In this document: positions 43,847 through 46,800 of the stretch, one piece after another
Layout: each line of letters starts with the position of its first letter
How positions within the stretch are numbered: the stretch's first letter is position 1
DNA from: Schmidtea polychroa
Lineage: Eukaryota
Direction: 5' to 3'
DNA length: 64,000 bases
NCBI GenBank assembly: GCA_044892525.1
Contig: CM097885.1
Span: 7,132,001-7,196,000, forward strand
The notes under the pieces: model-generated
Databases searched by the model: none
The model's input: the letters and a program-made list of their open reading frames with translations, nothing else
What the model was told of the DNA's origin: nothing
Position numbers and translations under genes: made by a program

Positions 43847-46800
43847 TTGAGAAACAACGATAGCTCATTGCCAAGAACAGATAATGAGAGAAACCCGAGT
43901 TACGAAACAACCAGAGAAACTGGAACAATGATGGAGAAACGGGCAAAAGGAAGACCTAGGAAGCAAGGAGAAAAACCAGAATTCAAAACCAGAGAACAAC
44001 TGAAACAAGAACAAGGACAAGTCAGATTAGAGAAACTGGATAAAATAGTGTGGGATCTAAAAGAGGCCCAGCCAACAATCGAAAGAGGCGAAAAATGGAT
44101 ACGAGAGCTAGTAAAAGATATGCTAATAATAACGAACCCACAATTGCGACGATTATGGCAACGAAAAGTAGCAAGCGTAGATGCCAGACAGCTATGGAAT
44201 ACAATATCCGGAATAATTCCGAAATTAATCAAAGAGAAGACAAAAACCACTAAAACCGATTGGGAAGAGACAAGAAGAGTAATTGAACAATTAACTTTAA
44301 ACGCAAACGACGACGAACATCATTTAGTAGTATTAACGTATCTAATGTACAATTTGATGGGATTAGCAGCAAGGAAAATACCTAACAAACAATTCGCAAA
44401 TCATGTAGAAATGACCGTTACAATCATTGAAAATACAATCGAACCACATATTATCCGCGCCGGTGGGTGGAAAAGACTCATACAAGCGCCACGAAAAAAC
44501 GAGCAAGAGAGATCAATGCAAATTCGGTTGAAGAAATTGCTAAACGAGCTGGAATGGGAATTGCCATTGAAAGACCCAGCCAGCAGAAAAGCGTCGATTA
44601 ATTCACTAATGATGACCATGATGATATGGATGCTCTGCACCAGTGGAGCCGCGGGATTTACCATTTACGACTGTGACAATTCGATAATAGGAGAAAGATA
44701 CTCCCTGAGAGATATAGAGGAATGTAGACAGTCATTTCCGAATAAATTAGATATAGTAAAAAAGAAAGTCTCCTATCACGTATACCAAGAATCAGATTTC
44801 ATTAGAACGCAAGCTAGAGAATGCGTAGTATCGAAGAAAGTGTTGGCATACTACTGTGGACAATACTCATATTCAACCCTTATATTACCTGGATTAGATA
44901 AAGAAATGGTACCTATACAACGGGAAGACTGTAAAGAGCTTTTTAGAACCGGAGCGATGAGAATCAGGGATGGAGTAACAATACACGGACAAAGCGGAAT
45001 GATCAAGACGGAAAGTATCTATGTAGCCGGACGAGTAAAATCAACTGATGGATCATGTAACGGAGGCACATATACGATCAGAGGAGAAGTGATCTCGGGA
45101 GTAGTAGTAATTGAGTCCTACACAGTGGAGTTGAAGGAATACGAAGCACAATTCGACGCAAACAACTATCAAATGAAAACCAACCCAGCATGCAGAGCTA
45201 CGGAAAACGTGTGTAGAACGGGAATTTCGACTATAATATATGAAGCTAACACCCAAAAATGCCGACTCCAATTGCTAAAAAGTGCTCTATTCAATGAAGT
45301 AAAAGGAGAAATTTACGAAAACGAGGATGACGATGAAGAGAATGGAAACGTAAGGATGCGAAATGGGAAACCAGTTCCACCATCCCCCAAAGAAAAGAGA
45401 CTCACAACACAAAAATCACCAACGGCATTAATTACAGATGATCCAGATATCGGTATGAGATTCATCAGAGAAAAAGAGACCACCAAATGTGACAGCATAG
45501 TATATCGGACGAACTACGCAGGTATCTACATGTCAAGGCAAGTAATAGACCGAGCAGTGGGAAAGGTAGCAACAGAGGACGTAAAATTGTACCTGTACGC
45601 CAATAACAAAATGGACTTTTTATTTCATCGAGGACAAACGACAATGCAAAAAGTGTATTACGATCTTATACAAAATGACTGTTCATTGAATAAAGAGATA
45701 CTAAAAACAAAATTAGCCATCGCAATAACACACCCAGATAACACAATGCCATCACTCCCGTTACCGGATGGACATTTTGGTAGAATGGTGGGAGAGGTAA
45801 TGTATACATATGCATGTACCAAGACATTTGCGCGACTGCCAAGAAAGCCCACAATTCCACCAGGGAAATGTGCAAATGAATTAGAAATTAGCTACAAAGG
45901 GCGAAACAGATTCGTTCAACCCGTCACTAGAATTATGAACCCAATTGGATTTTATCCGAACACCTTTAACTGTTCAAATGCATACGGACCGTTATATGAA
46001 AAACCCGATGGGAAATGGATAATGTTACCGGTAAAAACCGAAGTACAAGAACCTAAAAAGTTTGGATTAATAGAACTCGCAACGGAGCAAGATTTCAAAC
46101 CAATTGATGTGTCAAAAGCAGGTATGTACTCACCAGAGGATTTAGAAACAGCACGACTAAACGTACTATTCCCAGCAAGGCGAGAATCCATTCTATCGAA
46201 TATGGTTACCATAACTGGGGGAACGAATTTCCAGTCAGGCCCCAATTACGAACTATTATTGTCACCCGATCATTTTCAACAAGCCACGTCAAACATGATG
46301 AAAGCAATGTGGGGAAGATTTCTAGTGTTCGGTCAAATGATGGCAGGAATATTGGGAATCATCTTAATTATTCAGATCGTCAGGGTAATATTGACCCAAA
46401 TGTTGGCATGCTTCGATATATACAAGCGAGAAAAGAAAGTGAATTGGAAATTGATAGTAGGTTTTCTACCATTCTTGGCAAAAACAATGGTGTTGCACGG
46501 TCATTCTAAAGACATACATAGAATAAAACGATTGATCAAAATACTGACGAAAATAAAAGGAACTGACGAGGAAGTCGGTAGACGATTTCGGAAAACCATG
46601 TATGATGAAGCAACGAGAGCACAACTAAAAAAGAACAAACCAAAATTCCTAGACAGATTTAGAAATCGATCAAACAGCAGCGATAGTGATGATGACGACA
46701 ACGGGAATGACAAATACCCATATCCAAGTAGAAACCCGAATGAAAAGCCAATGGAAACAGCGCCATATTGGGAGAAAGAAAAAACAAATACCTGGATAGC

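Follow-up and report, generated by a model that had tools for sequence, protein, structure and literature searches.

We analysed a stretch of 64,000 nucleotides (nt) of the Schmidtea polychroa genome (contig CM097885.1, positions 7,132,001 to 7,196,000 of the forward strand; hereafter the window), which contains a long terminal repeat (LTR) element of the Ty3/gypsy type, 30,592 bp in total, at 32379-62970. Scanning the 64-kb window for open reading frames (ORFs) under the standard code revealed a same-strand series of ORFs between two long direct repeats, which align by BLASTN (32379-36579 against 58769-62970) with 99.79% identity across 4202 columns, leaving 8 mismatches and 1 gap. The repeats have the termini TGTTGG...CCAACA, and CTAC is present on both outer flanks as a 4-bp target duplication; the identity of the LTRs, their TG/CA ends and this duplication therefore mark a recently inserted LTR retroelement. 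The G+C content is 37-42% inside the element as against about 25% in the AT-rich DNA outside it. A 3275-amino-acid (aa) ORF of the element carries an envelope (env) domain at 44609-46501 (aa 255-885), in frame with the domains PR (protease), RT (reverse transcriptase), RH (RNase H) and IN (integrase). With a probability of roughly three in four, we consider the whole to be a young Burro-type giant Ty3/gypsy endogenous retrovirus with a class III env that would be made as part of a polyprotein. The features on which this reading is built are the following.

32379 to 36579, plus strand: 5' LTR, 4.2 kb, with TG...CA ends
39438 to 42746, plus strand: gag frame, 1102 aa from stop to stop, closed by TGA at 42744-42746 (Pfam)
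42747 to 43826, plus strand: 359-aa stretch in the gag frame, without a Pfam family, lying inside the single 4811-aa frame of a comparator copy (see below)
43847 to 53674, plus strand: 3275-aa ORF (env-pol), standard code
43847 to 44608, plus strand: pre-env part, aa 1-254 of the 3275-aa ORF, with a weak Bcl-2-like match
44609 to 44656, plus strand: internal signal-peptide-like segment, aa 255-270, MMTMMIWMLCTSGAAG (hydropathy, alignment to free glycoproteins)
44657 to 46309, plus strand: class III fusion glycoprotein ectodomain, aa 271-821, 551 aa (Pfam PF24664, cysteines, predicted model)
46313 to 46423, plus strand: transmembrane anchor, aa 823-859 (Kyte-Doolittle 19-mer maximum 2.53)
46424 to 46501, plus strand: start of the cytoplasmic tail, aa 860-885, alignable with viral G tails
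46994 to 47269, plus strand: aspartic protease, aa 1050-1141 (Pfam RVP, E 1.4e-07)
47933 to 48985, plus strand: reverse transcriptase and RNase H, aa 1363-1713 (RVT_1 E 4.1e-36, RT_RNaseH_2 E 7.6e-37, RT_RNaseH E 3.8e-39)
49307 to 49879, plus strand: integrase, aa 1821-2011 (Integrase_H2C2 E 1.9e-20, rve E 1.1e-12)
58769 to 62970, plus strand: 3' LTR, the BLASTN partner of the 5' LTR

The pol region is of the Ty3/gypsy type by Pfam (RVP, RVT_1, RT_RNaseH_2, Integrase_H2C2 and rve, with Retrotrans_gag on the gag side), and no BEL/Pao family is among the 14 Pfam matches to the 3275-aa ORF. In the gag frame, Retrotrans_gag was found at aa 172-265 (E 4.8e-10) together with zf-CCHC (E 4.5e-12). A first-pass annotation of the window had placed a glycoprotein at 44590-46500, inside the polyprotein and upstream of the protease, in frame with PR-RT-RH-IN and in a gypsy lineage. 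The coordinates and description were correct, as the domain lies at 44609-46501 in the single 3275-aa ORF, and the assignment to gypsy agrees with the Pfam families of pol.

The env stretch matches the Pfam family PF24664 (Monjiviricetes_fusion) with 247.4 bits against a gathering cut-off of 27 (E 2.8e-73). The match falls into two stretches, the best of which covers profile positions 244-579 of 653, and no other Pfam family was obtained for the env stretch at E up to 10. When 1.84 billion representatives were searched exhaustively with HMMER, 1016 matches reached E <= 1e-3, 48 of them E <= 1e-30; among the weaker, free-standing matches of ~650 aa is the glycoprotein of Tacheng Tick Virus 4 (E 1e-35), and the free-standing matches of this length score PF24664 at E 1e-139 to 1e-244. 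A word-indexed protein search with the env stretch returned none of 4280 candidates (347-1105 aa) at E <= 1e-5. A single-sequence phmmer search against the PDB gave nothing at E <= 1, and an alignment-profile search against the same database picked up herpesvirus glycoprotein B (gB) weakly, in 34 of its 36 matches, over the central-helix region.

The predicted structure points the same way. An AlphaFold2 model of env (mean predicted local distance difference test, pLDDT, 87.5; predicted template modelling score, pTM, 0.71) has a beta-rich N-terminal half and a 48-residue central helix, that is, the multi-domain beta-rich fold with a long central helix that is typical of class III. Foldseek comparison with solved structures gave herpesvirus gB for all top matches (best E 3.8e-14; 116 matches at E <= 1e-3), while among predicted viral structures the glycoproteins of chu-related viruses were best (E 5.3e-40, TM-score 0.65). 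As a lead only, the nearest ESM Atlas clusters beyond PF24664 carry the rhabdovirus G, gB and gp64 families. The predicted fold is shared with gB over about 410-440 residues including the long central helix, but identity is 9-13% and the whole-chain TM-score only about 0.4; on the predicted model, the likeness to gB is one of fold class and not of close kinship.

We conclude that the env domain is almost certainly a chuvirus/Monjiviricetes-type class III fusogen that shares the gB fold and is functionally constrained. The first-pass annotation had called it chuvirus-like and class III and had asked for a structural comparison with viral fusogens; PF24664, the Tacheng Tick Virus 4 match and the structural matches to chu-related glycoproteins and gB bear it out on each point. 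Env is a member of the PF24664 protein family and not of the negative-strand RNA virus group: it is not a gene of such a virus, because it stands in frame with PR-RT-RH-IN between LTRs in chromosomal DNA. It has in common with the chuvirus/Monjiviricetes G proteins, such as that of Tacheng Tick Virus 4, the HMM match, the 14 cysteines, a signal peptide followed by YDC, the anchor motif, a homologous tail and the predicted fold. In contrast to them, it is part of a reverse-transcribing element rather than a separate viral gene, and it is only about 20-26% identical to them.

A different class has been favoured for a related region. The Burro elements (GYPSM1) of the planarian Schmidtea mediterranea are Ty3/gypsy LTR retrotransposons of giant size (Arkhipova & Yushenova 2019, PMC6431247, through which we also draw on Grohme et al. 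2018 and Jurka 2007), and the passage of PMC6431247 on their env gives a 96.7% HHpred probability to gypsy Env, which would suggest a class I Env of the gypsy/baculovirus F type. The same passage, however, also mentions matches to mononegavirus fusion glycoproteins. For the element described here, Pfam yields PF24664 only, all top solved structures are gB, the ESM Atlas clusters after PF24664 are those of rhabdovirus G, gB and gp64, and no furin-type R-X-K/R-R site was found in the ectodomain, so that a class I Env is extremely improbable. At the level of the predicted fold, an Env of the errantivirus/baculovirus F type is refuted, and no such Pfam family appeared at E up to 10.

The env domain has a type I layout, with a signal peptide, an ectodomain, one anchor and a short tail. 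Its N-terminal segment, MMTMMIWMLCTSGAAG (aa 255-270), is followed directly by FTIYDC, which begins at aa 271, just as had been annotated. The segment consists of basic residues, a hydrophobic core and the small residues A-A-G ahead of F271; the basic residues before the core and the small residues at the end are seen in three families of the genome, and a hydrophobic stretch precedes YDC in 11/11 embedded homologues. We judged the segment by hydropathy, the -3/-1 rule and alignment to free glycoproteins; there, aa 255-270 falls on the signal region at their N-terminus, and the Y of YDC is preceded in them by a median of 24 residues (98 rows). This alignment is evidence that the internal hydrophobic segment is a homologue of the signal peptide of the donor virus.

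Of the 551 residues of the ectodomain, 14 are cysteines (2.5%; the ORF as a whole has 1.7%), and exactly these 14/14 correspond to the 14 cysteine columns that are at least 90% conserved in a 113-row alignment. The first-pass annotation had described a cysteine-rich ectodomain of ~550 aa: the length holds, and "cysteine-rich" does not at 2.5%, though all 14 are near-invariant in the family. WGRFLVFGQ, from aa 822, opens the hydrophobic stretch at aa 823-859, which starts with WGRFLVFGQMMAG and is the sole strong one in the first 2900 residues of the 3275-aa ORF; it corresponds to the transmembrane segment annotated before, with Kyte-Doolittle values up to 2.53. Its motif FL.FGQ..AG..G is preserved in the embedded homologues, 10/11 of which pass the threshold used. 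The patterns YDC..SL...C and W..F..FG...G..G, which the first-pass annotation had likened to chuviral glycoproteins, are the consensus of the aligned family. Past aa 885, the rows of free viral G proteins extend by a median of 31 residues.

The strength of selection on env was estimated from one pair, the window copy and a comparator copy with a single frame of 4811 aa, as the ratio of non-synonymous to synonymous rates (dN/dS). The regions compare as follows.

Env ectodomain: 36 synonymous and 4 non-synonymous differences, dN/dS 0.028
PR to IN: 119 synonymous and 13 non-synonymous differences, dN/dS 0.025
Gag: not tallied as one region, dN/dS 0.09-0.13
Ankyrin region: 51.5 synonymous and 32.5 non-synonymous differences, dN/dS 0.15

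In the same pair, the ratio is 0.14 for the 359-aa stretch and 0.04 for the pre-env part. By these counts, env is as constrained as the enzymes on the lineage that separates the two sub-families. Such parity with pol would be expected of an env that the element requires to propagate. If env were instead a dead passenger, a captured viral gene hitch-hiking in frame, the 36 synonymous against 4 non-synonymous differences would be difficult to account for, as would the absence of stops from env in 66/70 copies and the retention of order, signal segment, anchor and cysteines across families that are 29-47% identical. We regard this explanation as very improbable and close to refuted.

The copies just mentioned come from a six-frame search with the env stretch over the 781-Mb assembly, which gave 2874 first-look candidates, 70 of which were scored. 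All 70 are at least 98% identical to the env query, and in 40/70 env is held in open frames of at least 4700 aa. The comparator, which is the one such copy examined, has a DNA identity of 95.1% to the window copy; its single 4811-aa frame starts in gag, continues over env and pol and reaches the ankyrin region. The same genome contains two more env-bearing giant gypsy families (L015, C1:110157000-110166999; L016, C4:18509000-18518999). Their envs are 35-36% identical to that of the window, their open frames reach 3334-3565 aa, and they hold Retrotrans_gag/CCHC, env, PR, RT and RH (and IN) in one frame. For the query P0006, 60/60 scored matches are 39-42% identical to it. The possibility that the env segment was a one-off insertion, raised at first pass as a way for the idea to fail, is refuted by the 70 near-identical copies and by the same order in two additional families.

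Among database relatives that are 29-47% identical, env is followed by PR-RT-RH-IN in four, by PR-RT-RH in one and by PR in another four, and one has CCHC, env and PR. The gag-env-pol order is common to every relative with enough context, and no stop codon separates env from the protease in any family examined. Two proteins of the set have other arrangements: P0115 carries two immunoglobulin domains fused ahead of the glycoprotein domain, and in P0055 the glycoprotein is followed directly by an RT-type RNase H. A third, P0076, has the BEL/Pao-type DUF5641 (integrase tail) and then PF24664.

In trees built with FastTree (117 rows) and IQ-TREE in quick mode (56 rows), both unrooted and obtained by quick methods, the embedded envs group together in a single clade (support 100 and 99); P0076, which alone in the set is a BEL/Pao-linked glycoprotein, falls within another well-supported clade in both. 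These topologies support a single, undated association of env with the gypsy lineage, apart from the BEL/Pao case, and the earlier suggestion of a capture independent of BEL/Pao agrees with them.

The window copy departs from the continuous frame. The TGA at 42744-42746 and a run of A split gag, the 359-aa stretch and env-pol into separate reading units, so the gag-env-pol order proposed at first pass holds for the family, as seen in the 4811-aa frame and in the relatives, and the gag of the window copy itself is not in the env-pol frame. The run is located as follows.

43777 to 43783, plus strand: A7 run, 2 bases longer than in other copies, which shifts the env-pol frame (locus comparison)

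The A7 run is common to L001 (the window itself), L002 and L003, and ten other loci examined have 5 letters there. We read the TGA and the A7 run as signs of a damaged sub-lineage; alternatively, the run may serve programmed slippage. It reads A AAA AAG in the upstream frame, which is the register of a classical -1 slippery heptamer into the env-pol frame. A second copy, with a 100% identical env and the same A7 run, lies at C1:6899941-6901833, ~277 kb upstream of the window env (C1:7176609-7178501), and a third copy with the run is on C144. These copies may represent a segmental duplication or assembly haplotigs rather than separate insertions.

According to the passage on Burro in PMC6431247, env is in frame between gag and pol there and a BCL2-like motif lies upstream of env. 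The present element has many features of that description: a length of >30 kb with LTRs, Retrotrans_gag with CCHC knuckles, BCL2-like sequence ahead of env, an env that stands in frame between gag and PR, the enzymes PR-RT-RH-IN, ankyrin repeats, MATH/TRAF and thousands of copies. Of these, Bcl-2 (Pfam; aa 144-208 of the 3275-aa ORF, E 0.049) is below the cut-off, and env in one giant ORF is found in the family, with the window copy interrupted twice upstream of env. Differences from the published Burro1 also exist, as its MATH_TRAF_C is described inside the 4,873-aa ORF1 whereas MATH/TRAF is here a separate downstream ORF, and a dUTPase-like motif is reported between PR and RT of Burro1 whereas no dUTPase was found in the present element by Pfam. 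A third concerns env itself, for which the HHpred emphasis in that passage is on gypsy Env whereas the fold predicted here is gB-like class III. Because of the separate MATH/TRAF ORF and the missing dUTPase, the element is probably another (sister) Burro family, compared with Burro by description only.

Env proteins of the gB-like class III have been described in Ty3/gypsy elements across animals (eLife 2026, PMC13524379), where the order GAG-ENV-POL is given for "errantiviruses" (HSV/gB-type, HSV being herpes simplex virus) of Platyhelminthes, Nematoda and Bryozoa. In the parts of that study that concern these elements, they share with the present one a Ty3/gypsy pol, a gB-like ENV with signal peptide, transmembrane domain and cysteine bridges, the position of ENV before POL and multiple near-identical copies. 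The survey dropped candidates with LTRs >14,000 nt apart, a step at which 30-kb elements would fail, and in these parts GAG, ENV and POL are handled as ORFs, with no discussion of one uninterrupted frame. The existence of env, its in-frame position and its gB-like class are therefore already known, and the novelty implied at first pass falls away, since both the env of Burro (PMC6431247) and the GAG-ENV-POL order in Platyhelminthes (PMC13524379) are in print. On the Pfam family Monjiviricetes_fusion in this context, or further on the env of Burro, our literature search found nothing beyond PMC6431247; on class III proteins and Jingchuvirales it gave two preprints, neither of which concerns retroelements.

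What is added here is the Pfam family assignment and a high-confidence gB-like model that contradicts the gypsy-Env reading, the homology of the internal hydrophobic segment with the donor signal peptide, a selection on env equal to that on pol, and the retention of this order by at least three families of one genome that have diverged deeply. The Anakin elements of mosquitoes (Dezordi et al. 2020, PMC7642597) are BEL/Pao elements with a chuvirus glycoprotein of the same family; as described there, their glycoprotein lies 3' of a BEL/Pao pol, in contrast to the gypsy pol and the env 5' of PR seen here, and the BEL-linked P0076 is in a different clade from the embedded envs in both trees. According to the relevant section of a Cell Reports article of 2021 (PMC8532177), BURRO1 occurs in abundance, its expression is seen chiefly in the intestine, and PIWI knock-down lifts its repression. 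Such elements form a sizeable share of the genome of a regeneration model and are, by the same report, actively expressed.

The position of env raises the question of how it is produced. We have moderate confidence in a polyprotein route, and a polyprotein threaded through the membrane of the endoplasmic reticulum (ER) is the simplest reading of the arrangement. The long frame would be translated from full-length RNA, with the Gag-side part remaining in the cytosol, and the retained viral signal peptide (aa 255-270) would bring the nascent chain to the ER, where signal peptidase would cleave after A-A-G and release the Gag side. The ectodomain would then fold in the lumen. The single anchor (aa 823-859) would halt transfer, so that PR-RT-RH-IN would stay cytosolic, tethered through the Env tail until cut by the protease of the element. 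The trimeric fusogen might finally allow particles that bud to gain entry to other cells, with stem or germ cells as plausible targets.

Polyproteins of the flavivirus type hold a glycoprotein mid-frame that is bounded by an internal signal sequence and a stop-transfer anchor. The arrangement proposed here would be analogous, with a mid-frame membrane glycoprotein, an internal signal, a stop-transfer anchor and cytosolic enzymes downstream, but there is no homology between the two. Natural examples of a membrane fusogen placed mid-way in a retroelement polyprotein are rare, and the present layout is one of them; we know of no reverse-transcribing virus with an expression strategy based on mid-polyprotein ER insertion.

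Several observations weigh against the polyprotein account and the wider interpretation built on it. Gag is out of frame with env-pol in the window copy, the dN/dS values come from a single copy pair, and both trees lack a root and stem from quick methods, all of which weakens the case. The ectodomain has one N-X-S/T sequon. A moderately hydrophobic second stretch follows the anchor at aa 868-885; were it to span the membrane, it would put pol on the wrong side, but free viral glycoproteins have it in their tails too. Finally, the signal-like segment opens with Met in the window family (MMTMM) and, at the aligned position, in both other families of the genome, and Met also opens it in P0004.

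The last observation would fit a different origin of the same fusogen, namely a subgenomic mRNA, made by cis-splicing or by trans-splicing to a leader, on which translation begins at the Met cluster of aa 255-259. In that case the signal peptide would sit at the N-terminus, like that of the donor virus, and the in-frame continuity with gag would be incidental. In retroviruses and in the errantiviruses of Drosophila, Env is indeed made from spliced RNA. However, Met is missing from the start of the segment in the remaining embedded homologues, and hydrophobic stretches encoded by an AT-rich genome commonly contain Met. Env would still be fused to Pol, as no stop follows it, and inspection by eye of three families showed no conserved splice-acceptor-like pyrimidine tract with AG in the sequence upstream of the signal segment, which is weak evidence. 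A subgenomic origin is possible but rather unlikely.

A further explanation concerns function and not the route of synthesis, namely that the fusogen serves the element within its host, by cell-cell fusion or by tethering Pol to a membrane for assembly, without an extracellular phase. The thousands of near-identical copies (2874 first-look candidates) show spread within the genome only, the ectodomain has a single glycosylation sequon, and the Env anchor would tether Pol to the membrane. The whole ectodomain, its 14 cysteines and the tail nevertheless show the conservation seen in free viral glycoproteins, and the ectodomain and pol are under equally strong selection. An exclusively intra-host role appears improbable.

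The more far-reaching proposal, that Burro-type elements are true enveloped retroviruses of flatworms, which make a class III fusogen inside a Gag-Pol polyprotein by means of the signal peptide of the donor virus and co-translational insertion into the ER, is put forward tentatively. If it is true, Gag, Env and Pol would be produced in equal amounts and Pol would be tethered to the membrane by the Env anchor until the protease acts. Copies expressed in differentiated tissue could then reach the stem cells that serve as germ line in fissioning planarians.

Downstream of the integrase, the element carries the following additional features.

50744 to 51877, plus strand: ankyrin-repeat region, aa 2300-2677 (Ank_2 E 2e-16, Ank_4 E 2.1e-09)
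52673 to 53530, plus strand: second signal-like segment, 6-Cys stretch and second hydrophobic anchor at the C-terminus of the polyprotein, aa 2943-3228 (hydropathy; without a Pfam family)
54241 to 55680, plus strand: accessory ORF with RING and MATH/TRAF domains (MATH_2 E 1.1e-23, zf-C3HC4 E 9.9e-05)
55892 to 56935, plus strand: accessory ORF of 347 aa, without a Pfam family

The C-terminus of the polyprotein consists of a signal-like segment (aa 2943-2962), ~260 aa with 6 cysteines, an anchor (aa 3206-3228) and a basic tail; judged from its sequence, aa 2943-3228 looks like a second type I membrane protein. Between the two compared copies, dS is raised to 0.295 in this stretch (52673-53530). 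The dN/dS of 0.16 rules out positive selection on the second lumenal stretch despite this dS. No other stretch differs nearly as much between the two copies as the 347-aa accessory ORF: it shows 124 and 83 mismatches per 500 nt, compared with about 10-30 in the rest, and also several small indels. The 2.9-kb leader between the 5' LTR and gag is 84-89% identical to that of the comparator, against 95% for the coding part, and contains a tandem array at 38118-38411 with a 73-nt unit in 3 copies (99% matches).

A Maverick/Polinton-type element adjoins the retroelement at window positions 14242-27299. It comprises an ORF for a double-jelly-roll capsid protein (14242-15543) and an rve integrase with a phospholipase A2-like domain (15564-16958), and on the minus strand an A32-type ATPase (16970-17767) and a 1474-aa protein-primed PolB (22875-27299).

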